DNA from: a virus
Taxonomy: Duplodnaviria > Heunggongvirae > Uroviricota > Caudoviricetes
Length of the DNA: 51,620 nt
Direction: 5' to 3' (one strand)
IMG/VR virus record: IMGVR_UViG_2541047950_000002
Location: 1 to 51,620 of that record
Shown here: piece after piece, positions 3,762-20,215 of the stretch
How positions within the stretch are numbered: position 1 is the first letter of the stretch
Layout: every line of letters begins with the position of its first letter
Notes under the pieces: model-generated
The model's database searches: none
Told to the model about the DNA's origin: nothing
The model's input: the letters and a program-made list of their open reading frames with translations, nothing else
Position numbers and translations under genes: made by a program

Positions 3762-4120
3762 TTCTTATTCTCCGGTGCTTTCGGCATTACTGCCCAGTGA
3801 GTGATATTGACGTTTTCAAGGTCCCCGACCTGAAATGTCCACTGCCATTCTCCGGTTTCTTTTTGTCCCCAGGTGTACCAGAGAGAACGCCAGCCAATTA
3901 GCCAGCCTTCTCCGTTAGCATCAAATAACAGAACACTTTCATTTGCTGGTGGCAGTTCAGCTGACACTGGTATTATTTTGTTTTCCAGTGCCGTACATTT
4001 AGCTTCAAGCGCATCGAATTTACGTACCAGGTACTCAGCATTTGTTTCGTTCACTTTCAGATCTCGCGGTACACATTTCCCGCGAAGAAACCCTTCCATT
4101 TCGAAAACATTCATGCGCAT
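3758..4120 (-). CDS. YfdS-like phage protein, 120 aa
   Basis: Size and position match the CPS-53 yfdS slot; C-terminal THWAVMP is DUF551-like. Confidence 0.45.
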   Translation of the reverse strand: MRMNVFEMEGFLRGKCVPRDLKVNETNAEYLVRKFDALEAKCTALENKIIPVSAELPPANESVLLFDANGEGWLIGWRSLWYTWGQKETGEWQWTFQVGDLENVNITHWAVMPKAPENKK

Positions 4121-4647
4121 TTGCGTAACTCCGATAACTCGTTAAAACGTTCCATAAACATCCCGTAGGCATGGCCTGGTGACAGTGGAATAACTTTGAA
4201 CATCTCTGTCGCCGGGATACCTTCCAGTACAGGCCAGAAAGACCCATCATCAAGCCCGAGATCGCGGCGTTCGGTTGCCAGCATAATGAGATCGGCATAT
4301 TTCACTGGCGTGCTCATAACAGGAGGTAACCCGTATTTCTCACGGATTACGGCGTCTATTTTTTCTTCCATCCGTTTATAGTCAGGAAGAAGGCGTTTCA
4401 GTGGTGCGGGGATGTCCTGGCAATATGCTTCTGTTGCATCATGCATTAACGCTTCAAAAGCAAATTCCTGCGGTACCAGCTGGCTGCAAAGCACCGCATG
4501 TTGGGCGACGCTGTAGAAGTGTGAAAGATGTCCTGCAAAGCGACAGATATTTGAAAGGGAAACCGCGATATCGTTAATAACGATGTCGTCTTTATTTATC
4601 CTGTCATAATAAAAATGCTTCCCGGAAAAAGTTTTAATAAATGACAT
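4111..4647 (-). CDS. yfdR: HD-domain phosphohydrolase (YfdR-like 5'-deoxynucleotidase family)
   Basis: H..HD..D motifs (AQHAVL, LMHDATEAY, KYADL); 178 aa from the internal Met MSFIKT; the ORF track extends the frame to 4674. Confidence 0.6.
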   Translation of the reverse strand: MSFIKTFSGKHFYYDRINKDDIVINDIAVSLSNICRFAGHLSHFYSVAQHAVLCSQLVPQEFAFEALMHDATEAYCQDIPAPLKRLLPDYKRMEEKIDAVIREKYGLPPVMSTPVKYADLIMLATERRDLGLDDGSFWPVLEGIPATEMFKVIPLSPGHAYGMFMERFNELSELRKCA

Positions 4648-4774
4648 TTTGTTCTCCACGTATATGCGCTGCACCGCGCTGAATTCTGGTAAAAGGAAGC
4701 CCTCACCATCCGGTGATTATTGAGTTAATTACGTTTCCATAAATGCCCCCGCAGGGGCATTTGCAGTAATGAAA

Positions 4775-5599
4775 TCAGGCGGTGAAAGTACCAATAAAGG
4801 TTTCTACTTTGCTGTCTTTGAATTTCTCAACAAGCAGATCACGAAATTCGTTAGCCATTTCTTCCTGCACCGCTTCCAGCTGAATAATGCGCAGAACCAG
4901 TACAGGACGATCGCCAGTGATAATGCTGAGGCGTAATTTAAACGGACGTTCTTTCAGACCTTCAAACGGAACGCATTTAAATTCAAATGCCACTGGCATA
5001 ATGTCTTTGGTCTTCGCTTCGACAGACTCCATCAGGGAGCGTTTGCCGCTGAAGTCATTGTCTTCAAAATCAGCGGTCTGGTTTGCTTCAATCGTGATTT
5101 TACGGACTGCCGCAGCCGCTTTTGTTGCCTGAATAGCGTCACCATTAGCATCAAAGCCCACAAGGTAGTCGGCCCAGTCTTCGATCCATTCTGCCAGTGA
5201 TTTCTGGGAGTTACGCTCGCCATTAACAGACAACAGAGCAGAGAACGGTGCTGTCTTTTTCAGTTTGAGAGTGGCGGTGTTATCTGCGTGACCTGGTTCA
5301 TCAATAGTACCCAGGTTAAGCACACTGACGGCACGCATATTATCAGCATCGATAAAGCAGCGGGTGCCTTCATCTGCAAGATCTTTAGAATAACGGGTAA
5401 AGTCATCGATGCTGGCAGTGGAAAGCGCACCACGGAAACGGAAGCGATTTAAATTAAATTTTTCCAGATCATGAATGCGGAAATTCTCAGGCAATGCCAC
5501 AGCATCGGCACCAATCTTACTGATAATTTCATTAACACCCTGAGCAGAAATAAGGGCATGGATTTGATTAATTGCGGTTGCGTCTAAGTTCTGAGACAT
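4775..5599 (-). CDS. yfdQ: YfdQ-like DUF2303 family protein
   Basis: 274-aa ORF; length and sequence recall CPS-53 YfdQ. Confidence 0.55.
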
Positions 5600-5664
5600 A
5601 ATAAGTCCTCACTATATAAAGATATTCAGTGATGAGATAAATAATCAGTTAATTAAGAACGATA

Positions 5665-6027
5665 TTAATGACCTGCTGCGCGGAGTTTTCCGTCAGGTTC
5701 ACCGGCAAGAGTCAGTAATTGTCCCTGGTCTTCCTGCAGAATAGTCAGGCGACCACCGCGATTGACATACATCGGAGTTTCGGTGGTGTCTTCTTCGGAA
5801 ATTTTCCCGCGGTTAGTCGGGCGAACATATGAGAGTTTGTGTTTGATTTTCACACGGTTCTCATCAAATGGTTCGATTTCCAGGTTGAGCGAGACCTTAC
5901 CTTTGGTTTTCGTATTCATCACACCGGAAGCGACTTCACTGAGAACAGCGCCGATTTTGGTTTCAAATACGCCGCCGTCCAGCTCCCCGATAAATGCCTG
6001 CACATCAGTACTGCGTTCGCTAGCCAT
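5665..6027 (-). CDS. first gene of the leftward early operon (YfdP-like hypothetical, 121 aa)
   Basis: Internal ATG at 6025-6027 (MASERST) has GAGGAG about 7 nt upstream; the longer track ORF to 6213 has no RBS and runs through a hairpin. Confidence 0.45.
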   Translation of the reverse strand: MASERSTDVQAFIGELDGGVFETKIGAVLSEVASGVMNTKTKGKVSLNLEIEPFDENRVKIKHKLSYVRPTNRGKISEEDTTETPMYVNRGGRLTILQEDQGQLLTLAGEPDGKLRAAGH

Positions 6028-6075
6028 TTTGTTGCTCCTCATCATATCGACCCTGCAAGGTCGGTTGGTTTCTCC

Positions 6076-6174
6076 ACAAAACAGAGAAGAACACCTGCGG
6101 TGGCAGCCGCCCGGATGGATTGGGTTATGAGCCCGTCGTCCGGTGATGCTCTTCTCTGTTTTGTAAAAAGAGCG
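6076..6174 (-). promoter_or_regulatory. boxA-like motif plus long stem-loop in the pL leader (candidate nut/put-like RNA element)
   Basis: On the - strand CGCTCTTTTTACAA (6161-6174) runs into an 18-bp inverted repeat, 6147-6164 pairing with 6076-6093 at 17 of 18 positions, 48 nt upstream of the first early gene. Confidence 0.4.
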
Positions 6175-6704
6175 GTACCAGCCGGAAGCAAGTGTACAAA
6201 CTGGTACTGCCAAAGCAGTGGCTGTTGTGGTGACCGGTGCTGATCTCCGGCTTGCGGTTATTTCAGACTCTCACGGGCGTTTGATTGCCCCGCCGAACAG
6301 CTCTTTTCCGCAATAGCTGCAATGTCTTTCGCGCATCAGCCTGCGCATTCACCACAACGCTGAGAGCATTGCCGGTGTCCGAATCGAACGGACCTTTTCC
6401 CTGCCCAACCCTCCCATCTGAATGGGACTGTCTGGAATTGAACCAGCACTTATGCCTTGCTCGTCAATGCTCTCATCGTTGCGTCCTGGTCTCTTCCCAG
6501 GCGTCAAACCGAATCGCCACGCTGGTTAGGCGTCTTATCAGCATCCTCATTGACTTGCACATTCCGGCTACCTGGTTTGTTTGCCCGAGCAAGGAGTGGA
6601 TTGTCCCCTTTAACGTCCCCAGACCGCTAACGACGCATGTGCCATACGCCGTGTTACAACCAAATTTTGTTAGGACCTTGTTTGTTGGTCTGGAAAGAAA
6701 GATA

Positions 6705-6805: not shown

Positions 6806-7498
6806 TTAATTGTGTCGCTTAAGGGTTTGTGACTGACTGATTAAGACCTTCCCAAAGACCATAAACCGGTGTTCATTTTCGCTGGTAATTCCCCATTCAC
6901 GGTAAATCTGGTTATCAGAAATTACCAGTAGTTTGTCAGGTATCATTTGCAGTCGTTTGACATAAATTTTATCATCAAAACCAAACACATAGATACCATC
7001 CCCATCAAACTGATTGATACTGATATCAACGAAGATGAGATCTCCTGGCTCAATGGTTGGACACATACTGTCCCCACGAACGTTGATAACTTTAATGTGA
7101 TTGGCTGGTCGTCCTCCAAACATCGATACAGCATTATCAGTTATGTATTCAATGGCATGAATCACATCAATGACATCACCGCCCTGGATAAGGCCATTTC
7201 CCGCACTGGCACTGACATCCAGCATTTCAATACGGAATACATCCTTCACCTGCGCAACATCCTCACCAGTACTGTTTTTACATACAGTATTACTTTTGAA
7301 GTCTGAGGTAAAGAGATCTGCAATATCAACACCTAAGCTCCTGGCAATATTACTCAGGGCTTGTTCAGTGAATTGTTTCTGCTTACCTGTTTCCAGGCGT
7401 GAGATATTCGCCGCATCCACTCCTATTGCTTCAGCGAGATCGGCGATTTTCATGTTCTTCGCCTGGCGAAGTTGTCTGACTCGATTTCCTATGTTCAT
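6806..7498 (-). CDS. CI-like prophage repressor (XRE HTH plus S24 LexA-like peptidase domain)
   Basis: 230 aa; N-terminal HTH (NIGNRVRQLRQAKNMKIADLAEAIGV); C-terminal S24-type domain (RGDSMCPTIEPGDLIFVD); divergent from the cro-like gene. Confidence 0.85.
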   Translation of the reverse strand: MNIGNRVRQLRQAKNMKIADLAEAIGVDAANISRLETGKQKQFTEQALSNIARSLGVDIADLFTSDFKSNTVCKNSTGEDVAQVKDVFRIEMLDVSASAGNGLIQGGDVIDVIHAIEYITDNAVSMFGGRPANHIKVINVRGDSMCPTIEPGDLIFVDISINQFDGDGIYVFGFDDKIYVKRLQMIPDKLLVISDNQIYREWGITSENEHRFMVFGKVLISQSQTLKRHN

Positions 7499-7595: not shown

Positions 7596-7856
7596 ATGCA
7601 ATCACCATTACGAAATGTGCGTAAGGCGCACGGATTTACTTTGCAGCATGTTGCTGCGGGTGTTCAGGTTAATCCAGCGACGCTGAGTCGTATTGAGAGA
7701 CTGGAACAAATTCCATCTATCGATCTGGCAGAGCGTCTGGCCAATTTTTTTAAGGGAGAAATCAGCGAAATGCAGATTCTCTATCCTGCTCGCTTTCAAT
7801 CTAGTCAAAACCGGAATGAGTTAAAACCACAGGAAAAGGAGGTAAGCCGTGGGTAA
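7596..7856 (+). CDS. Cro-like HTH regulator
   Basis: 86 aa; HTH (HGFTLQHVAAGVQVNPATLSRIE); GGAGG RBS; divergent from cI. Confidence 0.65.
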   Translation: MQSPLRNVRKAHGFTLQHVAAGVQVNPATLSRIERLEQIPSIDLAERLANFFKGEISEMQILYPARFQSSQNRNELKPQEKEVSRG

Positions 7857-8400
7857 GCATCACTGGAAAGTGGAAAAACAGCCTGAGTGGTACGTGAAAG
7901 CGGTCAGAAAAACTATCGCGGCGTTGCCGGGTGGTTACGCTGAAGCAGCTGAGTGGCTGGATGTAACAGAGAACGCTTTATTCAATCGCCTTCGTGCCGA
8001 TGGCGATCAGATTTTCCCGCTGGGATGGGCAATGATTTTACAGCGCGCGGCTGGCACTCACTACATTGCGGATGCTGTCGCACAGTCTGCTGGTGGGGTG
8101 TTTGTATCGCTTCCTGACATTGAGGAAGTAGAGAACGCCGATATAAACCAGCGCCTGCTGGAAGTCATCGAACAGATCGGGAGTTACTCAAAGCAGATTC
8201 GTTCGGCAATCGAAGATGGGGTAGTGGAGCCACACGAGCAGACAGCAATGAATGATGAGTTGTATCTGTCAATTTCGAAGCTCCAGGAGCATGCGGCACT
8301 GGTCTACAAAATTTTCTGCGCTCCAGAAAAGAGTGACGCCCGCGAGTGTGCAGCTCCGGGCGTCGTGGCGTTTTGTGTCTGTGGAGAAACTAACGCATGA
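7849..8400 (+). CDS. CII-like regulatory protein (CP76-type)
   Basis: 183 aa with GTG start overlapping the cro end; position and recalled family similarity. Confidence 0.45.
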   Translation: MGKHHWKVEKQPEWYVKAVRKTIAALPGGYAEAAEWLDVTENALFNRLRADGDQIFPLGWAMILQRAAGTHYIADAVAQSAGGVFVSLPDIEEVENADINQRLLEVIEQIGSYSKQIRSAIEDGVVEPHEQTAMNDELYLSISKLQEHAALVYKIFCAPEKSDARECAAPGVVAFCVCGETNA

Positions 8401-9560
8401 ACAGTTTAACGGCAAATAACCGTTTGTCGCAACAGCTGGTGGTCAGTGTCGCTGCACACCTGTTGTTACGGCATGAATGCAGATTACCAAATCACCTGGC
8501 TGTAAGTAACCACAGAGAACTTTACCTGACTGTGGGGGGCGAGTTGTGCAGGAACTTAACCGCTGGTTTCGTGACGGAAGAGGACTTTATGTTCATGTTA
8601 TTCGTTGGGAGCCAGAAACACAGCGCGTTATCTATCTTCGCAAAGACTACCCGCATGAGTGCTTTAGTCCTTTGTGGAAATTCAGGCGTGATTTTGTTGA
8701 GTGTGAAGGACCACCAGCATATTGATTCTGCAATTCCGGGACGTTACACTGTACCGGCACCTTATAAAGCGGGTGCCGGGATTGGCGTCCTGAAATTGAT
8801 TACTGAGCATAACCGCGCTCATGCGGTTTTTTCGTGTCATGAGCATTGCTACGCCCAAATTATGGTGGGGCGTACAGGGCCGACTTCGGTCGGGCCGGGT
8901 TCGGTAGTCTCCGGTAACGCCAACCCTGTACGTCTCACCACCTCTGTGATTGGCGTCCCATGTGGTGAGTTTTCTAAAAAACTGACTACCGGGGCTGTCA
9001 CTATGACTACTCTCCCAACCCTCTCTCAACCTGAAATTGCCATCGTTGATGGTCAGGCTGTTACATCTTCTTTGGCTGTTGCTGACTTCTTCTCTAAACG
9101 TCATGACGATGTTCTGAAAAAGATCCGCATTTTGGATTGTTCTCCAGAGTTTTGTGCCCGCAATTTTGCGGAGACATCAATTTTGGTACGCCAGCCCAAC
9201 GGCGGTACTCGCAAACTTCCTTGCTATCAAATCACCCGCGACGGTTTTGCGTTTCTTGCCATGGGCTTCACTGGTAAACGTGCTGCCCGGTTCAAAGAGG
9301 CATACATCAACGCCTTTAACCTGATGGAGAAACAGCTTTCAAAGCCCGCTGTACCGAGCGACGTTGCACATAACGCCAGCGTTCTCTGTTCCTACATTTC
9401 ATCAATTCATCAGGTCTGGCTGCAGCAGCTTTATCCTATGTTGGCAAAAGCCGAATCTCCGCTGGCTGTTAGCTTATATGACTATATTAATGATGCTTCG
9501 GCGCTGGCCTGCCTCATAAATTTGTCGCTGAACCCTTCAGAGGCAAGGGGGCGCAAATGA
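8397..9560 (+). CDS. ORF with C-terminal Rha (pRha) domain; N-terminal 200 aa unassigned (alternative start 9003)
   Basis: ATG at 8397 overlaps the upstream stop (ATGA); residues from MTTLPTLSQ (nt 9003) onward resemble Rha regulatory proteins; a second frame is also open over 8507-8722. Confidence 0.45.
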   Translation: MNSLTANNRLSQQLVVSVAAHLLLRHECRLPNHLAVSNHRELYLTVGGELCRNLTAGFVTEEDFMFMLFVGSQKHSALSIFAKTTRMSALVLCGNSGVILLSVKDHQHIDSAIPGRYTVPAPYKAGAGIGVLKLITEHNRAHAVFSCHEHCYAQIMVGRTGPTSVGPGSVVSGNANPVRLTTSVIGVPCGEFSKKLTTGAVTMTTLPTLSQPEIAIVDGQAVTSSLAVADFFSKRHDDVLKKIRILDCSPEFCARNFAETSILVRQPNGGTRKLPCYQITRDGFAFLAMGFTGKRAARFKEAYINAFNLMEKQLSKPAVPSDVAHNASVLCSYISSIHQVWLQQLYPMLAKAESPLAVSLYDYINDASALACLINLSLNPSEARGRK

Positions 9561-9781
9561 TCCGGAATATTTTCAAACGTTTTACCAATCAGACTTTCCG
9601 TTGTCCTCGTCCGGGTCAGTGGTACACCACGCCTGCAGGGCATGTTCTACGTGTTAGCCTGGTTGACCGTGAATGTCAGAAGGTGATTTGTGAACCGCTG
9701 GGCCGTAATTACCGCGTCAGTATGCCGCTTATAGCCTTTCGCTCCGGAAAAAACATGAAGCATCTCGGAGGTGCAGCATGA
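9557..9781 (+). CDS. hypothetical small protein, 74 aa
   Basis: ATGA overlaps at both ends couple it to its neighbours. Confidence 0.4.
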   Translation: MIRNIFKRFTNQTFRCPRPGQWYTTPAGHVLRVSLVDRECQKVICEPLGRNYRVSMPLIAFRSGKNMKHLGGAA

Positions 9782-10596
9782 GTATGGAGCTGATGGTTAA
9801 AGCGATGAAAATTCGAGTGGGTAATCCATTGCGAAAACTGGTTCTGATCAAGCTGGCTGATAATGCCAGCGATCAGGGTGAGTGCTGGCCCAGCTACCAG
9901 CATATTGCTGACCAGTGCGAGATTAGCAAACGTTCTGTGATGAATCATATTGCGGCCCTTTGTGAGTCCGGGCTGGTAAAAAAAGTCACCCGGAAAGGTG
10001 AAAAAGGTAACTCAAGTAATATCTATCTCCTTCATCTTGATGGTGCAGGAGATTCACTAGGGAGTAGTGCAAATAATTCACTATCTGGTGCAGCAAATTC
10101 ACCAGGTAGTGCAGGAGTTGCACCAGGGGGTAGTGCAGGAGATTCACCCAGAACCAGTCACTCTTTTGAACCAGTCAAAGAACCAGTCAATGAACCAATA
10201 GCTGTTGGTGCATCTGCTGATGAGTCTGTGCGAGTTCGTTCAAACCGATCGGAATACTCTCCGGAGTTTGAGCAGGCATGGCTGGCATACCCCAAACGTG
10301 CTGGTGGCAATTCAAAATCTGCAGCCTTCAAAGCCTGGAAAGCCCGTTTGAATGAGGGGGTAAAACCCGAAACCATGCTGGCAGGTGTGAAACGCTACGC
10401 GGGCTGGGTATCTGCGATGGGTAACAGCGGCACACAATTTGTGAAACAGGCTGTCACGTTCTTTGGCCCGGATCGTCATTTCGAAGAATCCTGGGAAGTT
10501 CCTGCGGTATCTGCAGCCAGACGCGAGGACCCGTACTTCAAAGCCAGTTACGACAACGTGGACTACAGCCAGATCCCGGCAGGATTCAGGGGGTGA
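9778..10596 (+). CDS. replication initiator, O-like (N-terminal HTH, iteron-encoding linker, C-terminal domain)
   Basis: 272 aa; N-terminal winged-helix-like region; the central low-complexity linker is encoded by the 21-22 bp tandem repeats; same architecture as lambda O. Confidence 0.55.
   Translation: MSMELMVKAMKIRVGNPLRKLVLIKLADNASDQGECWPSYQHIADQCEISKRSVMNHIAALCESGLVKKVTRKGEKGNSSNIYLLHLDGAGDSLGSSANNSLSGAANSPGSAGVAPGGSAGDSPRTSHSFEPVKEPVNEPIAVGASADESVRVRSNRSEYSPEFEQAWLAYPKRAGGNSKSAAFKAWKARLNEGVKPETMLAGVKRYAGWVSAMGNSGTQFVKQAVTFFGPDRHFEESWEVPAVSAARREDPYFKASYDNVDYSQIPAGFRG
10041..10149. repeat. iteron-like tandem repeats (candidate origin of replication) inside the O-like gene
   Basis: About five imperfect 21-22 bp direct repeats (GGTAGTGCAGGAGATTCACC-like) followed by three GAACCAGTCA repeats. 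Confidence 0.5.
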
Positions 10597-11087
10597 GCAT
10601 GGGTCTTTTGAATGACGTTCAGAAATTCATTGAAGCCCATCCGGGCTGTACTTCCGGAGACATTGCGGATGCTTTTGCAGGTTACTCACGGCAGCGCGTT
10701 CTGCAGTCAGCAAGCAAGTTACGTCAGAGTGGGCGTGTGGCTCACCGTTGTGAAGGAGATACACGCAGACATTTCCCGCGCCTGACTGAGAGAGCGCAGG
10801 AGCCGGAACCACAACCAGTTCGTGAAACCAGACCTGTGCGCAATTTCTATGTCGGCACTAACGATCCACGGGTGATTTTGTGCCTGACCCGCCAGGCTGA
10901 AGAACTGGAGTCAAGGGGCTTATACCGTCGTGCTGCAACCGTGTGGATGGCGGCATTCCGTGAAAGCCACTCCCAGCAAGAACGAAACAATTTTCTGGCA
11001 CGTCGTGAGCGGTGCTTACGGAAAAGCAGCAAGCGCGCTGCATCGGGTGAAGAGTGGTATCTGTCAGGGAATTACGTGGGGGCTTAA
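10593..11087 (+). CDS. PerC-like regulator with N-terminal extension
   Basis: 164 aa; C-terminal GLYRRAATVW resembles the PerC/Pch signature as recalled; start GTG 10593 or ATG 10599. Confidence 0.4.
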   Translation: MSMGLLNDVQKFIEAHPGCTSGDIADAFAGYSRQRVLQSASKLRQSGRVAHRCEGDTRRHFPRLTERAQEPEPQPVRETRPVRNFYVGTNDPRVILCLTRQAEELESRGLYRRAATVWMAAFRESHSQQERNNFLARRERCLRKSSKRAASGEEWYLSGNYVGA

Positions 11088-11740
11088 TGAGTAATAAATA
11101 TTGCCAGGCGCTGGTGGAACTGCGGAACAAACCAGCCCATGAACTGAAGGAAGTGGGCGATCAGTGGCGCACGCCGGACAACATTTTCTGGGGAATTAAC
11201 ACCCTGTTTGGCCCGTTTGTTCTGGATCTGTTTACTGACGGTGATAACGCCAAATGTGCCGCGTATTACACGGCGGAAGACAATGCGCTGGCGCATGACT
11301 GGTCAGAACGTCTTGCGGAGCTTAAAGGTGCTGCCTTTGGTAATCCCCCATACAGCCGCGCCAGTCAGCATGAGGGGCAATACATCACCGGCATGCGTTA
11401 CATCATGAAGCATGCCAGTGCCATGCGTGATAAAGGCGGGCGCTATGTTTTCCTGATCAAAGCTGCCACCAGCGAAGTGTGGTGGCCGGAAGATGCAGAT
11501 CATATTGCTTTTATTCGCGGGCGTATTGGTTTTGAACTGCCTGCCTGGTTTATCCCGAAGGATGAGAAGCAGGTGCCGACAGGCGCTTTCTTCGCTGGAG
11601 CTATTGCTGTTTTCGACAAGACCTGGAAGGGACCGGCAATCAGCTACATCGGGCGCGATGAACTTGAGGCATGTGGTGAGGCCTTTCTGGCGCAGGTTCG
11701 CCAGCAGGCAGAAAAACTGGTCAGGGAGATGGCGGCATGA
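11087..11740 (+). CDS. phage N6-adenine DNA methyltransferase
   Basis: 217 aa from MSNKYCQ; NPPY catalytic motif (GNPPYS); TAATG overlap with the upstream gene. Confidence 0.7.
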   Translation: MSNKYCQALVELRNKPAHELKEVGDQWRTPDNIFWGINTLFGPFVLDLFTDGDNAKCAAYYTAEDNALAHDWSERLAELKGAAFGNPPYSRASQHEGQYITGMRYIMKHASAMRDKGGRYVFLIKAATSEVWWPEDADHIAFIRGRIGFELPAWFIPKDEKQVPTGAFFAGAIAVFDKTWKGPAISYIGRDELEACGEAFLAQVRQQAEKLVREMAA

Positions 11741-14275: not shown

Positions 14276-14292
14276 TTTTGTGGAGAAAGTTG

Positions 14293-14673
14293 ATGCGTGA
14301 TATTCAGATGGTTCTTGAACGCTGGGGGGCATGGGCGGCAAGTGGTAACACCGGGGTGGACTATTCTCCGATCGCTGCCGGATTCAAAGGACTTTTACCA
14401 TCTGCCACTAAACCACGTCCGGCCTGCTGCGATGATGACGGACTTATCATTGAAAACTGTCTTGCTCGTCTGAAGCAGAAAAAACCTGAGGAGTATTCGC
14501 TTCTCATTGCTCATTATTTGTTGCGAATATCAAAAAGACAGATAGCCAGGACGAGAAAGAAAAGCGAAAAAGCAATACGAATTGAGATGCAGATAGCCGA
14601 AGGGTTTATTGACGGATGTTTGTCTGTGCTGGGGGTAAGACTGGAGATGGACGACTGGCTGCTAAAAAAGTAA
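14293..14673 (+). CDS. Q: late-gene antiterminator Q (phage 21/933W type)
   Basis: MRDIQMVLERWGAWAA N-terminus recalls Q of the 21/933W group; last gene of the coupled early operon, followed by a terminated short leader. Confidence 0.65.
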   Translation: MRDIQMVLERWGAWAASGNTGVDYSPIAAGFKGLLPSATKPRPACCDDDGLIIENCLARLKQKKPEEYSLLIAHYLLRISKRQIARTRKKSEKAIRIEMQIAEGFIDGCLSVLGVRLEMDDWLLKK

Positions 14674-15236: not shown

Positions 15237-16295
15237 ATGCTTAATACTGTAAAAATATCCAGTTGTGAGTTAATCAACGCCGACTGCCTGGAATTTATCC
15301 GGTCGTTACCCGAAAATTCTGTTGACCTGATAGTCACGGATCCGCCGTACTTTAAAGTGAAGCCTGAGGGCTGGGATAACCAGTGGAAGGGCGACGATGA
15401 TTACCTGAAGTGGCTGGACCAGTGTCTTGCGCAGTTCTGGCGGGTGCTGAAACCTGCCGGAAGTCTTTACCTGTTCTGTGGCCATCGCCTAGCATCTGAT
15501 ATCGAAATCATGATGCGTGAACGCTTCAGTGTGCTGAACCATATTATCTGGGCAAAGCCGTCCGGACGCTGGAACGGGTGCAACAAGGAAAGCCTGAGGG
15601 CGTATTTCCCCGCCACAGAGCGCATTCTGTTCGCGGAACATTATCAGGGGCCGTATCGTCCGAAAGATGCCGGGTATGAGGCGAAGGGCAGGGCACTGAA
15701 ACAGCATGTGATGGCTCCGCTGATTGCTTACTTTCGTGATGCGCGTGCTGCCCTAGGGATAACGGCAAAACAGATAGTGGATGCCACAGGAAAGAAAAAC
15801 ATGGTGTCGCACTGGTTCAGTGCCAGTCAGTGGCAACTGCCGAACGAAAGTGATTATCTGAAATTACAGGCGCTGTTTGCCCGGGTGGCAGAAGAGAAGC
15901 ATCAGCGGGGTGAACTGGAGAAGCCCCACCACCAGCTGCTGGAGACGTATACTTCACTGAACCGGCAGTATGCGGAACTGCAGAGTGAATATAAGCATCT
16001 GCGGCGGTATTTTGGCGTGACGGCGCAGGTGCCGTACACCGATGTGTGGACGCATAAACCGGTGCAGTACTATCCCGGGAAACATCCGTGCGAAAAACCG
16101 GCAGAAATGCTGCAGCAGATAATCAGCGCGAGCAGTCGTCCGGGGGACCTGGTTGCAGATTTTTTCATGGGGTCGGGTTCGACAGTCAAAGCCGCGATGG
16201 CACTGGGGCGTCGTGCAACTGGTGTTGAGCTGGAGACTGAACGTTTTGAGCAGACGGTCAGGGAAGTTCAGGATTTAGCCAGTCAGAACGGATGA
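15237..16295 (+). CDS. DNA methyltransferase (N4/N6 amino-MTase, DPPY motif)
   Basis: 352 aa; N-terminal VTDPPYF catalytic motif; C-terminal FFMGSGST AdoMet-binding motif. Confidence 0.7.
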   Translation: MLNTVKISSCELINADCLEFIRSLPENSVDLIVTDPPYFKVKPEGWDNQWKGDDDYLKWLDQCLAQFWRVLKPAGSLYLFCGHRLASDIEIMMRERFSVLNHIIWAKPSGRWNGCNKESLRAYFPATERILFAEHYQGPYRPKDAGYEAKGRALKQHVMAPLIAYFRDARAALGITAKQIVDATGKKNMVSHWFSASQWQLPNESDYLKLQALFARVAEEKHQRGELEKPHHQLLETYTSLNRQYAELQSEYKHLRRYFGVTAQVPYTDVWTHKPVQYYPGKHPCEKPAEMLQQIISASSRPGDLVADFFMGSGSTVKAAMALGRRATGVELETERFEQTVREVQDLASQNG

Positions 16296-16335: not shown

Positions 16336-16411
16336 GGCCCTTTAGCTCAGTGGTGAGAGCGAGCGACTCATAATCGCCAGGTCGCTGGTTCAAATCCAGC
16401 AAGGGCCACCA
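16336..16411 (+). tRNA. tRNA with anticodon CAT (Met or Ile2-type)
   Basis: Manual cloverleaf: 7-bp acceptor GGCCCTT/AAGGGCC, anticodon loop CTCATAA, T-loop TTCAAAT, encoded 3' CCA. Confidence 0.8.
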
Positions 16412-16420
16412 TATCACATA

Positions 16421-16497
16421 CCGCCATTAGCTCATCGGGATAGAGCGTCAGCCTTCGAAGCTGGTTGCGCGGGGTTCGAGTCCTCGATGGCGGTCCA
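16421..16497 (+). tRNA. tRNA-Arg (anticodon TCG)
   Basis: Acceptor CCGCCAT/ATGGCGG, anticodon loop CTTCGAA, T-loop TTCGAGT, encoded CCA. Confidence 0.7.
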
Positions 16498-16510
16498 TTA
16501 TCGGTATTCA

Positions 16511-16587
16511 GCGTTGTTAGCTCAGCCGGACAGAGCAATTGCCTTCTAAGCAATCGGTCACTGGTTCGAATCCAGTACAACGCGCCA
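16511..16587 (+). tRNA. tRNA-Arg (anticodon TCT, reads AGA)
   Basis: Acceptor GCGTTGT/ACAACGC, anticodon stem ATTGC/GCAAT with loop CTTCTAA, T-loop TTCGAAT, encoded CCA. Confidence 0.8.
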
Positions 16588-16756: not shown

Positions 16757-17188
16757 ATGTTTGGTATTTTCAAAAAGAAAACCCGCAGAGCAGCAGCGGA
16801 AATTAAAAAGTTTGAGAAACGTGATCTGGCACAGGCGGTTATTAATGCTGCCTACCTGGTAGCCTATGCAGATGGTGAATGTGAGGCTTCAGAGAAAGCG
16901 AAGATCGAGCAGGTCTTGCGTAACCAGCCAGCGTTGTCCGCGTTTACGTCAGAAATTAATGCTATCAGTGCCACGATCACAGGTCAGCTTGACACCAACT
17001 TTAAAATTGGTCGTCGAGCGGCGTTGCGTGAAATTGAAGATGTGAAACACGATACGCGTGAAGCGGAAGATGTGCTGGATGTGGCGGTGGCCATTGCTGA
17101 AGCAGATGGTGAAATTGAGCCGGAAGAGCGTAAGGTTCTGGAAGAGATTGCTGGTGTTCTTGGCCTGCGACTGGAGAACCACCTGTGA
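16757..17188 (+). CDS. TerB-like domain protein
   Basis: 143 aa; two ADG motifs (YADGECEASEKAKI and EADGEIEPEERKVL) typical of the TerB fold; sits where stx lies in Stx phages. Confidence 0.55.
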   Translation: MFGIFKKKTRRAAAEIKKFEKRDLAQAVINAAYLVAYADGECEASEKAKIEQVLRNQPALSAFTSEINAISATITGQLDTNFKIGRRAALREIEDVKHDTREAEDVLDVAVAIAEADGEIEPEERKVLEEIAGVLGLRLENHL

Positions 17189-17349
17189 CGGTAAAACTGC
17201 GTCTGGCCGCTGTGGCACTCCTGCTGTTTCTGGTGGTGATGGTGGATTTCACCAGCAGGATCATGTCGGTGCTGGCGGATGGAGTGCTGGTGGTCGGTAT
17301 TGTGGTGGTGCTTTTTCCTTTGGTGAAAAAGGACATGCCAGGTAGTTAG
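17185..17349 (+). CDS. small hydrophobic (membrane) protein, 54 aa
   Basis: GTG overlapping the TerB-like stop; predicted product VTVKLRLAAVALLLFLVVMV... is strongly hydrophobic; not in the ORF track. Confidence 0.3.
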   Translation: MTVKLRLAAVALLLFLVVMVDFTSRIMSVLADGVLVVGIVVVLFPLVKKDMPGS

Positions 17350-17596
17350 CCGGGTATCAGTCATGCCCCGAAAATTTTAAATGTCTCACAATTCAGACGG
17401 TTGACAGTTGTCTGTTTTGCGGGGAGTTTGTTAAAAGAAACAGGCATGGTGAATCCCCCTGAGCGGAGGGGCGACTGGTGCATTAGGTGTTATCTTTGAT
17501 ACCCAGGAAAGTAAACGCGCGGGTTTGGTGGCACCGGGCTGAACTCACCGGGAGGCACCCGGCATCATGCGCATGATGATACAGATACGCGGCTTT

Positions 17597-17622
17597 AGCC
17601 CCTCTCCGGAGGGGCTTTTATA
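17597..17622 (+). terminator. rho-independent terminator
   Basis: Perfect hairpin AGCCCCTC-TCCG-GAGGGGCT followed by TTTTATATGAATTTT. Confidence 0.6.
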
Positions 17623-17650
17623 TGAATTTTGTAAGATATGAGTAAACTAA

Positions 17651-17986
17651 TTATGGACACTGTTGTTTTAGTCCGTAAGGGCATATTTGCAGAATGCAAT
17701 GATTATTAAAGCATTCTTTCAATACGTTATCTGAATTTGCAGGACATTCCTGGCTGTTTTTGATTAAATCCCAGAATCTTTTATTGAATGGTACAACGTT
17801 GTAAATGGTTACAGGTAGCACTTTGTTATTAAGTACGATACCTGTGTGAGTCAACGTAAATATACTTTCAGGAGGTAAGAAAACATCCGATTGATACCAG
17901 ATTATTAATTTTATTTTACTCCATATGGCTGAAAAAGATATTCCGCATGATGGCTGGATAACTGTATCAATCACAATCCACTTCAT
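17651..17986 (-). CDS. orphan AT-rich protein, 111 aa, Cys-rich C-terminus; convergent to the late operon
   Basis: ATG at 17984-17986 with consensus AAGGAGG RBS on the - strand; very low GC; very AT-rich upstream region. Confidence 0.55.
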
Positions 17987-18247
17987 TTAGCCTCCTTATT
18001 TATGCTGTGCTGGTGATGTTCTGAAAAGTATAAATGATAATTTTGAATGTAAACCATAGAGCAGAATTATTTTTCTGATGTTGTTTATTGTTTATTTAAA
18101 TACAGGTTTTTTATATCCCGTCTTGTAGTTTATCCATGCATACCTGCTTTATGATGAGGTTTTCATTTAAGGTATGGTTTTGTGTTTTTTTTCTGTATTT
18201 CATGTCAGGTATTTTAAAGAATTGTTTTTAATATGGTGGAAAGAACC

Positions 18248-20215
18248 ATGGCATTTAAACACTACGATGTGGTCAGGGCGGCGTCGCCGTCAGACCTTGC
18301 GGAGCGACTGACTCAAAAACTGAAGGAGGGGTGGCAGCCATTTGGCAGCCCTGTCGCCATCACGCCTTATACCCTGATGCAGGCCATTGCGGCGGAAGGT
18401 GATGTCACCACACCTGTGGTGGTGAAGCCGTCGGATGGAGAAGGCACAGTAATCAGCGCCACCAGCGACCCGGAGTATTACTTTGTTGTGGTTCTGGCAG
18501 GGCAGTCAAATGGCATGTCGTATGGTGAAGGTCTTCCGCTGCCGGAGACATATGACCGTCCGGACCCGCGTATTAAGCAGCTGGCGCGCCGCAGTACGGT
18601 GACACCGGGCGGTGCCGCCTGTAAGTATAACGACATTATTCCGGCGGACCATTGTCTGCATGATGTGCAGGACATGAGCCGTCTTAACCATCCGAAAGCG
18701 GACCTGTCAAAGGGGCAGTACGGAACCGTGGGGCAGGGGCTGCATATCGCCAAAAAACTGCTGCCGTTTATACCGGCGAATGCGGGCATTCTGCTGGTTC
18801 CGTGCTGCCGTGGTGCTTCGGCATTCACAACGGGGGCAGACGGCACATACAGCGAATCAGCCGGTGCATCGGAAAATTCACTGCGCTGGGGTGTGGGTAA
18901 GCCGCTGTATCAGGATTTGGTGAGCCGGACTAAAGCCGCACTGGCGAAGAACCCGAAAAACCGTCTGCTTGCGGTGGTGTGGATGCAGGGAGAAGGTGAT
19001 GCGGCAGTGGGGACGCATGCGCAGCATCCGGGGCTGTTTAGTGCGATGGTGAATCAGTTCAGAACGGAGCTTGCCGGTCTGGCATCACAGAGCACAGGAG
19101 GCAGCGCATCAGCGGTACCGTGGATTTGCGGGGACACAACGTATTTCTGGAAGCAGCGTCATGCGGAAGGGTATGCATCAGTATACGGAGGGTATAAGGG
19201 GAAGGAGTCGCAGAACATTTTCTTTGTACCGTTAATGACGGATGAGAATGGTGCGAATGTGCAGACCAATAACCCGGCAGAAGACCCGGACCTGGAAACC
19301 GTCGGTTATTACGGTTCAAAGTGGCGTAATGACCAGAAGACCTGGACATCAGCAGACAGGGCCAGCCATTTCAGTTCATGGGCTCGCCGTGGGATTATTT
19401 CCGACCGTCTGGCAACGGCGATTCTGTTGCACGCCGGGAGAACCGCTGAATTCATTACCGGAAAACAGCCTGATACGGTGAAGCCCACCGGACCTTCCGG
19501 TGAAGGTCCGGAGAGAGAGGCGGAAGCCCCGGCCAGTAAGCGTACCCTGATGAGTCTGCTGGCATCCGGCGAAGACCTGGCATCACAGGGCTGGCGCTAT
19601 TATCACAAACCGGCGAGCGGAGACAGTATTGATAAAAACATCGCTGAGGCTGTGGTCAGTGATGAGGGTGCCACCGGTGGTAAGGCCCTGCAACTGAACA
19701 AACCGGAAAGCCACATCTGGTTTCTGGAGCATGATGCAGCCGGGCAGGGGGCAGAGTTACTGAAGAAAGGCGGACGTGTGAGCGTGCGGTTTAAGGTGCC
19801 GGGCTCACTGGTACAGAACCGGTTTGCCCTGGGTATTTACTGGCAGTTGTCGTCCCTGCCGGAGGGTGTGTCGCTGGCGGAGGAAGGCAACGACATGCTG
19901 ATGTCCTTCTTCCTGCAGACGGATGCGACGAACCTGAACGCGATGTACCACAAGACGCAGAATGCGAAGCTGGATACGTTCGGGGCATTTGATAACGAAT
20001 GGCACACACTGTCTTTTGAGTTTGCCGGAAACAACAGTATTCAGGTGACGCCGGTACTTGATGAGAAGCGGGGCACGCCATTCACGCTGGTGAAATCTCA
20101 GGCAACAGGGGTGGCGGATAAACTTCTGCTGACTGATATCACGAAGGTAGCAACGTATACGCTGCTGATTGACAGCGTGAAGGTGGAAGTGAACAACGCG
20201 GACGCCGCGGCATGA
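18248..20215 (+). CDS. NanS-p-like sialate O-acetylesterase (N-terminal DUF1737-like, C-terminal carbohydrate esterase)
   Basis: About 655 aa; N-terminus MAFKHYDVVRAASPSDLAERL recalls the Stx-phage NanS-p/YjhS family; same position relative to Q and S as in Stx phages. Confidence 0.65.
   Translation: MAFKHYDVVRAASPSDLAERLTQKLKEGWQPFGSPVAITPYTLMQAIAAEGDVTTPVVVKPSDGEGTVISATSDPEYYFVVVLAGQSNGMSYGEGLPLPETYDRPDPRIKQLARRSTVTPGGAACKYNDIIPADHCLHDVQDMSRLNHPKADLSKGQYGTVGQGLHIAKKLLPFIPANAGILLVPCCRGASAFTTGADGTYSESAGASENSLRWGVGKPLYQDLVSRTKAALAKNPKNRLLAVVWMQGEGDAAVGTHAQHPGLFSAMVNQFRTELAGLASQSTGGSASAVPWICGDTTYFWKQRHAEGYASVYGGYKGKESQNIFFVPLMTDENGANVQTNNPAEDPDLETVGYYGSKWRNDQKTWTSADRASHFSSWARRGIISDRLATAILLHAGRTAEFITGKQPDTVKPTGPSGEGPEREAEAPASKRTLMSLLASGEDLASQGWRYYHKPASGDSIDKNIAEAVVSDEGATGGKALQLNKPESHIWFLEHDAAGQGAELLKKGGRVSVRFKVPGSLVQNRFALGIYWQLSSLPEGVSLAEEGNDMLMSFFLQTDATNLNAMYHKTQNAKLDTFGAFDNEWHTLSFEFAGNNSIQVTPVLDEKRGTPFTLVKSQATGVADKLLLTDITKVATYTLLIDSVKVEVNNADAAA

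Follow-up and report, generated by a model that had tools for sequence, protein, structure and literature searches.

A probable lambda-style replication origin inside the HTH_36-type initiator gene of a lambdoid prophage without a recognisable helicase loader

Introduction

How does a lambdoid phage that encodes a replication initiator and no recognisable helicase loader start to copy its DNA? The question is raised by a 51,620-nucleotide stretch of Caudoviricetes DNA (IMG/VR record IMGVR_UViG_2541047950_000002, positions 1 to 51,620; hereafter the window), which is a lambdoid prophage with an O-like initiator gene at 9778-10596. Its replication module is carried by Shiga-toxin (Stx) phages and by common prophages of E. 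coli, Shigella and Salmonella, and replication drives toxin gene dosage after induction. Published work finds that 34 of 314 Enterobacterales lambdoid phages have an O homologue only, with replication that 'is not yet understood' (PMC12315714), and work on the 'Eru' regions of Stx phages describes non-O/P regions as likewise not understood (PMC8951638).

A preliminary description of the window had proposed an iteron-type origin inside the O-like gene and had left helicase loading to host factors or to the initiator's C-terminal domain. Here we report that 10000-10200 is very probably a replication origin that lies within its own initiator gene, where the inter-domain linker is encoded, and that comparison with homologous loci allows the proposal on helicase loading to be sharpened to a short DnaT-like tail at the end of the initiator. 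We consider the account as a whole, origin together with helicase recruitment, to be probable, and put forward the part played by the tail more tentatively.

Five iterons inside the linker-coding segment of the initiator gene

Within 10043-10147 the window holds five 15-bp, dyad-symmetric copies of GTGCA-N5-T(T/G)CAC, namely iteron 1 (GTGCAGGAGATTCAC, 10043-10057), iteron 2 (GTGCAAATAATTCAC, 10067-10081), iteron 3 (GTGCAGCAAATTCAC, 10088-10102), iteron 4 (GTGCAGGAGTTGCAC, 10109-10123), which is a perfect 5+5 palindrome (GTGCA-GGAGT-TGCAC), and iteron 5 (GTGCAGGAGATTCAC, 10133-10147), which is identical to iteron 1. The array is also detected by repeat finders. The five direct repeats of the preliminary description are thus real, but the period of 21-22 bp that it gave them is not, the start-to-start spacing being 24, 21, 21 and 24 bp. 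It had also reported short repeats next to the array, and these prove to be exactly three copies of GAACCAGTCA at 10151, 10168 and 10180, just past the end it had given at 10149; elsewhere in the window GAACCAGTCA has only one-mismatch matches. All of these repeats fall inside the open reading frame (ORF) at 9778-10596, at residues ~89-140, with the iterons occupying residues 89-124.

The degenerate pattern GTG[CA]A-N5-[TG][TG]CAC finds only these five sites in the 51.6-kb window. Searching with the 15-mer and allowing up to three mismatches gave nine matches, four of them in the array, against 1.4 expected, and none of 100 shuffles reached nine. Exactly the same five iterons are carried by five sequenced phage genomes, including that of the isolated phage mEp460. 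As for other signals, Rfam returned only a sub-threshold microRNA chance match at the site, and no DnaA boxes (TTWTNCACA) were found within the early region. A site for integration host factor (IHF) at the origin was considered and set aside, its consensus being a poor fit when checked by eye.

Iterons co-vary with the recognition helix across homologous loci

We compared 80 homologous loci from a Gammaproteobacteria collection with one genome per species, among them loci of Pseudomonas, Enterobacter, Erwinia, Aeromonas, Shewanella, Marinomonas and Xenorhabdus. Nearly every locus has three to seven direct repeats at nt ~262-380 of the initiator gene, and the spacing between them is 21 bp (69 cases), 22 bp (28), 23 bp (18) or 24 bp (61), corresponding to two helical turns. 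Some of the spacings break the reading frame in 29 of 79 loci, where the same DNA motif is therefore read in different frames; GTGCAGGAAATTCAC, for example, is translated as VVQEIHQ in one copy and as SAG.S (SAGDS) in the next. Because such out-of-frame copies encode different peptides, the repeat is not a peptide repeat.

The sequence of the repeat also co-varies with the recognition helix of the initiator, and at least six helix/iteron classes can be told apart across the 80 loci. Helices of the form SKRSVMNHI or SRRSVINHI go with iterons of the form GTGCA-N5-TKCAC, SKRSVMRHI with GTGACACAGAGTCAC, [GAS]RSTVK[LV]HI (xRSTVKxHI) with GGGGCrG.AG.TrmCCC, DRSTVRKHI with TGTAGGCCCAGAAAGCAC (short form TGTAGGCC), SKSAVRNHI with TGTGCCr.C.G.TGGCA, and GKRTVISHI with GTGCAAATGYTGCAC. 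This co-variation suggests that the repeats are specific to their cognate initiator.

Within this set, Marinomonas posidonica and M. aquiplantarum (loci L029 and L040) have HTH_36 initiators with five clear GTGCAAATGYTGCAC iterons and the conserved element described below, and both initiators adjoin a short lambda-P-like ORF. For bacteria related to these, a study of the domesticated genes dopC and dopE reported dopC to be free of iterons (PMC5509034).

A sequence-invariant element follows the last iteron

Directly after the last iteron lies an element of ~45 nt that retains 90-99% nucleotide identity in all aligned loci, including those of GC-rich Pseudomonas, independently of iteron class, C-terminal domain and host GC content. 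In the window this family-wide element, AGAACCAGTCACTCTTTTGAACCAGTCAA.GAACC (also AGAACCAGTCACTCTTYTGAACCAGTCAA.GAACC), occupies 10150-10197, holds the three GAACCAGTCA repeats and encodes RTSHSFEPVKEPVNEP. Its codons are fixed, with AGA for Arg, AGT and TCT for Ser and GAA for Glu each at 100% and GTC for Val at 96%, whereas 31 equally conserved residues of the N-terminal domain, taken as a control, draw on the full set of synonymous codons, the commonest having a mean share of 0.60. The element is thus under nucleotide-level selection across the whole family. The possibility that it is a recent recombination joint was rejected, given that its flanks are 40-70% identical across genera compared to 90-99% for the element itself.

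The family-mean minimum of duplex stability falls on this element, where the 30-bp deltaG is ~-39 kcal/mol as opposed to -44 to -46 kcal/mol, and where GC content averages 0.40 over the family versus 0.55-0.60. A second, weaker minimum of the family lies just left of the iterons, and in 20 of 80 loci the least stable segment starts in bins -150 to -91. In the window, the left flank of the array (10000-10040, 30-33% GC) is the least stable 30-bp segment within +/-400 bp. We regard 10150-10197 as a candidate unwinding or helicase-entry element. Taken together, the recurrence of the array at the same position in the 80 loci, the breaks of frame, the match between helix and iteron and the frozen element argue for the earlier placement of an iteron origin in the linker-coding part of the gene.

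The initiator is O-like in architecture and belongs to the HTH_36 type

The initiator gene (plus strand) encodes 272 amino acids comprising an HTH_36 winged helix, a disordered linker, a helical C-terminal domain and the DnaT-like tail. The protein matches Pfam HTH_36 (1.8e-11; 44.1 bits against a cut-off of 25) and PHROG 270, 'replication initiation protein' (8e-89), its gene lies in the early-right operon, and its relatives are accompanied by partner replication genes, all of which identify it as an HTH_36-type phage initiator. Indeed, nearly all loci have conserved partner genes downstream (DnaC-like plus DnaB-like, DnaC-like, lambda-P-like or others), a context that marks the protein as a replication initiator. 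The winged-helix DNA-binding domain (residues 1-86, 9778-10035, plus strand) contains the recognition helix SKRSVMNHI at residues ~50-58. An AlphaFold model built with 94 sequences has a confident winged helix at residues 1-85 and a predicted local distance difference test score (pLDDT) below 50 at residues 91-157, indicating disorder in the linker, which is rich in Gly, Ser, Ala and Pro; a model built with 17 close homologues was poor at the C-terminus. The C-terminal domain, which we call type A (residues ~160-230, 10255-10467, plus strand; motif F..W..YP.R.G...K..A.KAW), is modelled as helices at 162-170, 180-192, 197-217 and 225-229 with pLDDT of 70-87.

The preliminary description had called this protein O-like, and the term holds for its architecture but not for its family. 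Phage_rep_O (PF04492) is absent from its Pfam matches, which consist of HTH_36 only, and comparison by hhalign gave a probability of 0.8% with lambda O and of 0.5% with the DnaT core, with no match to PF17948. As neither comparison is significant, we assign the initiator to neither family. The N-terminus of lambda O has been reported as similar to HTH_36 by HHpred (PMC5509034), a relation that is at most remote. The C-terminal domain has no Pfam, NCBIfam or PDB sequence match, and PDB profile searches with the full protein and with this domain returned nothing significant. Nor do we assign the protein to DnaD, to which its likeness is one of fold and sub-threshold, and whose DnaD/DnaB-type C-domain is not that of the initiator. 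The family is modular, in that N-domain/iteron classes combine with at least eight classes of C-terminal domain, and the 45-nt element sits at the junction.

A lost helicase loader and a DnaT-like tail

In agreement with the preliminary description, the initiator gene is followed by a PerC-like regulator and a methylase, and no P or DnaC homologue was found. The PerC-family gene (YfdN-like, 10599-11087, plus strand; Pfam PerC 2.2e-9, PHROG 'transcriptional activator') occupies the slot that a DnaC-like loader holds in relatives, and the phage Dam methyltransferase gene (11087-11740, plus strand; Pfam Dam 1.1e-45) that of a DnaB-like helicase. Pfam finds no helicase or loader domain in the early genes on either side, and tblastn over the whole window with DnaC-like, DnaB-like and lambda-P-like (P-type PF06992) queries and with two unknown partner classes found nothing.

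The relatives of the window are different in this respect. Among 24 informative loci with a type A C-terminal domain, 22 have an IstB/DnaC-like AAA+ gene and a DnaB-like helicase gene directly downstream, one has a DnaC-like gene only and one a lambda-P homologue. The 15 loci of type C have lambda-P homologues (7), DnaC-like genes with or without DnaB-like genes (6) or no detected partner (2), and types B and D are accompanied by conserved partner proteins without a Pfam or NCBIfam match. In the type B/D initiators of Pseudomonas, Vreelandella and Zymobacter (L005-L030) and of Aeromonas (L063-L081), conserved proteins of ~246-273 and ~170 amino acids always follow, any of which might be a helicase loader or adaptor that has escaped recognition. 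An E. coli relative, 82% identical, has five iterons with the same spacing and DnaC-like and DnaB-like genes downstream. DNA homology between this relative and the window ends at ~10496, or residue 240, from which it follows that the tail belongs to a different module and that the loader-less state is derived. By this comparison, the last ~30 codons of the initiator together with PerC and Dam replace the tail, DnaC and DnaB of the relative.

What the window carries at this position resembles the end of a host replication protein. The C-terminal tail NVDYSQIPAGFRG (10555-10593, plus strand) resembles the end of E. coli DnaT in its last nine residues: ...DNVDYSQIPAGFRG (SQIPAGFRG) closes the initiator and ...RDVNTVSEPDSQIPPGFRG (SQIPPGFRG) closes DnaT, with eight of nine residues identical, both motifs C-terminal and BLASTP similarity confined to these nine residues. 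The match is longer in initiators with a lambda-O-like C-terminal domain, which match 19 residues of the DnaT tail (E values of 7e-5 for L016 and 5e-6 for L046). Few segments of DnaT are as well conserved as the tail across 104 clusters (71-99% identity), with I, P, G, F, R and G at 98% or more and the third position of the motif variable.

A scan of viral contigs for genes in which the codons of IP[AP]GFRG directly precede the stop codon yielded ~155 proteins of at least 140 amino acids, which have at least four unrelated classes of C-terminal domain and more than one class of N-terminal domain, and most of which carry a longer DnaT-like form, R(D/C)(V/I)N..S.PD..IPxGFRG. For 91 of the tail-bearing phage proteins the DNA beyond the gene extends to 2.5 kb or more, and of these none was followed by a DnaB-like gene, 27 were followed by a DnaC-like gene only and 64 by neither. 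Conversely, all 22 type-A relatives with DnaC and DnaB have other tails (...SDCNW, ...GRANF, ...SDNLTF). The tail thus marks initiators that must use host helicase. The PerC-like gene travels with it in many viral contigs, though not in all.

Two further observations concern the tail. The Q antiterminator gene (14278-14673) contains, at residues ~25-36, GVDYSPIAAGFKG, which resembles the initiator tail NVDYSQIPAGFRG, and the Q proteins of L085-L087 and L046 resemble it in the same way; either coincidence or a short motif in common could account for this. In E. coli K-12 (L088) dnaT lies directly upstream of dnaC, and tail-bearing initiators (L016, L046) lie directly upstream of DnaC-like genes. 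The host dnaT-dnaC operon may descend from a phage initiator module, or the reverse.

A working model and its alternatives

Based on these comparisons, we propose that rightward transcription would lead to synthesis of the initiator, whose N-terminal domains, probably as dimers, would occupy all five iterons from a single side of the helix. The nucleoprotein complex so formed would open a weak flank, for which we favour 10150-10197, with 10000-10040 as the alternative. Because the phage has lost its DnaC-like and DnaB-like genes, host DnaB would be brought in by the C-terminal part of the initiator, and the terminal SQIPAGFRG-COOH, copying the DnaT tail, could plug the origin complex into the host DnaB-DnaC complex and restart primosome, through DnaB, DnaC, PriA or PriB as its partner. 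We put the chance that the tail recruits host helicase at a little below even. The more specific idea that it mimics the DnaT tail, with an origin-bound oligomer that replaces DnaT or docks its partners and so hands DnaB-DnaC onto the 45-nt element, is more speculative again, and we offer it as a possibility only.

Several observations count against parts of this model. Variants with two iterons, possibly one, are common in E. coli assemblies, where copy number among homologues ranges from ~1 to ~9. In the two-iteron form, which encodes an initiator of 250 amino acids (L085-L087, E. coli assemblies), 90 bp are deleted between iterons 1 and 5, which are identical; the assembly collection indexes this form in 90 blocks, and 24 contigs were read. 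It occurs in prophages, some of them visibly decayed, with an insertion sequence (IS), a cI gene cut short or genes that are split. Either a small number of iterons is enough, or the two-iteron prophages are defective, with decay established for some only. The AT-richness of the site is also modest, with 37-40% GC in the right flank and 30-33% in the left compared to ~50% for the phage. With regard to the tail, the match in the window is a nine-residue motif on a domain core unlike that of DnaT. DnaT residues 154-179 are without known function and structurally unresolved (PMC4132743, PMC13377028), and the latest structural paper favours the N-terminal domain of DnaT for recruitment of DnaB/DnaC (PMC13377028, PMC4132743). 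Finally, the tail counts were drawn from enterobacterial prophages that are redundant, so that they do not represent independent events, and the tail and PerC/Dam form one recombination module whose co-occurrence could reflect linkage and not function. It is on account of this redundancy and physical linkage that we treat the role of the tail as a lead.

The alternative that survives best, although we think it unlikely, is that helicase loading depends on host recombination or on PriA and takes place at D-loops or R-loops (by way of RecBCD and Chi, followed by PriA-PriB-DnaT-DnaC), with the initiator at most providing an opened structure. Shuffling would give 2.5 Chi sites (GCTGGTGG) in the window, which has 22, 17 of them on the plus strand, and no recombination module is recognisable there; the study of the loader-less phage LLS describes a class with no Rec module and high Chi (PMC12315714). 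The DnaT-like tail, moreover, could equally dock PriA or PriB rather than DnaB-DnaC. The same study, however, reports no convincing correlation between the type of Rec module and the type of replication protein (PMC12315714), and the intact iterons and initiator in five phage genomes argue for origin-dependent initiation, at least early. Loading through PriA is thus a serious partial alternative, one that overlaps with the proposed role of the tail rather than excluding it. The Chi sites all lie in the left half of the window, at 1285-27537.

It is improbable, in our estimation, that the real loader is encoded by a neighbouring gene, be it the PerC/YfdN-like gene at 10599-11087, the 74-amino-acid ORF at 9557-9781 or another early gene. 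The PerC-like gene does sit in the loader slot, accompanies the tail in many contigs and has an N-terminal half without an assigned function, and other initiators of the family precede conserved proteins that lack a Pfam match. Yet both the PerC domain and the PHROG annotation suggest that it encodes a transcription regulator, and downstream of at least ~25 tail-bearing initiators there is no PerC-like gene and no DnaC-like gene either (for example L091). The 74-amino-acid ORF was rejected as a hidden loader, as a 74-amino-acid ORF in the same position, likened to that of the window by position and length only, also precedes the E. coli relative with DnaC and DnaB.

Repeats of this kind need not mark an origin, since plasmid iterons also serve copy control, and the array could consist of initiator sites for control only (autorepression, titration or handcuffing) while replication starts elsewhere. 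Binding inside a transcribed gene could block rightward transcription, and the modest AT-richness would suit such a role as well. We nevertheless judge control alone to be quite improbable because the window has no second cluster of the motif and because the family-wide combination of iterons, invariant weak element and partner gene mirrors lambda ori; the conserved element, in addition, has no obvious role in pure repression. Lastly, that the repeats merely reflect a slippage-prone, low-complexity peptide linker without DNA function, the scenario that the preliminary description had named as its own refutation, has next to no chance of being right: the region does encode a disordered Gly/Ser/Ala/Pro-rich linker and its copy number varies as in tandem repeats, but out-of-frame copies, a dyad-symmetric motif that changes with the recognition helix, spacing held at 21-24 bp and frozen synonymous sites in the adjoining element make it untenable and fit a lambda-type iteron origin.

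Genomic context of the module

The origin lies in an early region of lambdoid layout. A cI-type repressor gene on the minus strand (6806-7498) is followed by cro (7596-7856), a cII-like gene (7849-8400), a Rha/Ash regulator gene (8397-9560) and the 74-amino-acid ORF (PHROG 1153, plus strand), which is translationally coupled to the initiator gene. Downstream of Dam are genes for a protein with a LexA DNA-binding domain, RusA, KilA-N, DUF968 and antiterminator Q. Over the 1.6 kb round the origin, DNA identity is 98-99.9% with phages 1720a-02, Stx2a_1447, phiSTEC1575-Stx2k, mEp460 and the PhiR phages, and 96-98% with many Stx2c phages; in the first four of these phages the match to the initiator gene is the replication-protein gene.

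The early-right operon has two DNA methyltransferase genes, the Dam-family gene and an N6_N4_Mtase gene (15237-16295), and inspection of the sequence by eye found no cluster of GATC at the origin. A cluster of tRNA-Met, tRNA-Arg(tcg) and tRNA-Arg(tct) genes typical of Stx phages lies at 16336-16587, and AGA, the invariant Arg codon of the origin element, is the codon read by the phage tRNA-Arg(tct). Next to this cluster is a TerB-domain gene and not stx, followed by a NanS-p-like esterase gene (DUF1737 + SASA + DUF6645; region 16757-20215), and the window looks like an stx-less relative of Stx2 phages. At 49021-51244 a minus-strand phage integrase gene adjoins a gene of the Dus family of dihydrouridine synthases; the right end of the prophage is probably at this dus gene, which would be host DNA and not phage. 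Finally, homologues of CPS-53 genes are found on the minus strand at 4111-6213, comprising yfdR (HD/YfbR-like, 4111-4674), yfdQ (DUF2303, 4775-5599) and yfdP. YfdR is reported to bind DnaA and to inhibit the DnaB-DnaA and DiaA-DnaA interactions (PMC4776307), and its homologue might divert helicase from oriC in a phage that borrows host DnaB.

Implications and relation to known systems

The comparison provides an origin with base-pair coordinates, a specificity code that relates recognition helix to iteron, a candidate helicase-entry site in the 45-nt element for a whole gammaproteobacterial phage family, and, in the tail, a handle both on how a loader-less phage acquires DnaB and on the role of the DnaT tail in replication restart. 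If mimicry of DnaT is true, it would explain the 'O-only' modules, assign a function to the DnaT tail and suggest shared ancestry of the dnaT-dnaC operon and the phage initiator-dnaC modules. If the idea about the tail fails, an ordinary but previously undescribed lambda-style origin remains.

By gene content, one O-like gene without a loader, the window can be likened to the 'O-only' modules exemplified by phage LLS (PMC12315714) and to the Rha/HTH-type 'Eru' regions (PMC8951638). It also resembles the class of phage LLS in being Chi-rich without a Rec module, and its replication module is found in mEp460 and Stx2 phages as well. The two papers treat gene content only and, in the passages searched, do not describe iterons, the conserved element or a DnaT-like tail (PMC12315714, PMC8951638). 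A literature search, which did not cover most subscription journals, likewise brought up no account of the iterons, of the 45-nt element or of the tail. The loader-less state has therefore been noted before, while the 45-nt element and the DnaT-like tail are new as far as these searches reach.

Iteron plasmids such as pSC101 (RepA), RK2 (TrfA) and R6K (pi) also place repeats beside a melting region, lack a loader of their own and have initiators that contact host DnaB/DnaC. No iteron-plasmid Rep family, however, is among the Pfam matches of our initiator at E <=0.01, and the origins of these plasmids lie outside the rep gene, usually with DnaA boxes, of which there are none near this origin. 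Unlike the window, Bacillus phage SPP1 (G38P, oriL) encodes its own loader and helicase.

DnaT, which is a proposed adaptor that brings DnaB-DnaC to the restart primosome and whose gene is directly upstream of dnaC, is like the initiator of the window in the C-terminal (S)QIPxGFRG-COOH and like other initiators in RD(V/I)N..S.PD..IPxGFRG. There is no detectable likeness outside the tail, and DnaT, which has no sequence-specific DNA-binding domain of its own, acts with PriA/PriB at forks and not at an origin. A further parallel is DopC of Cellvibrionales and Oceanospirillales, which joins an HTH_36 N-terminal domain to a DnaT-related C-terminal motif and is encoded upstream of a helicase-handling gene, with DopE as partner (PMC5509034). 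DopC is a domesticated O-like protein, reported without iterons and as not serving as an origin (PMC5509034). Its reported relation to DnaT is to the three-helix core (PDB 2ru8), whereas the window is a phage with intact iterons.

The closest likeness is to lambda. We consider this a lambda-style origin, carried inside its initiator gene, in a family for which we found no earlier origin description. In both systems the origin lies within the linker-coding part of the initiator gene and has dyad-symmetric iterons about two helical turns apart, lambda having four annotated iterons at nt 349-433 of O with spacings of 20, 24 and 23 bp. Lambda has an easily melted segment beside its last iteron, for which the window offers a candidate at the same place. 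Both have an initiator gene in the rightward early operon after cII, and a protein made of an N-terminal winged helix and a C-terminal part that recruits the partner. They differ in that lambda has Phage_rep_O and the window HTH_36, in the C-terminal domain and in the P gene, which the window lacks; lambda O ends in ...DWIYGVDL in contrast to the DnaT-like tail, and the generic AT-rich stretch of lambda has as its counterpart here a sequence-invariant 45-nt element.

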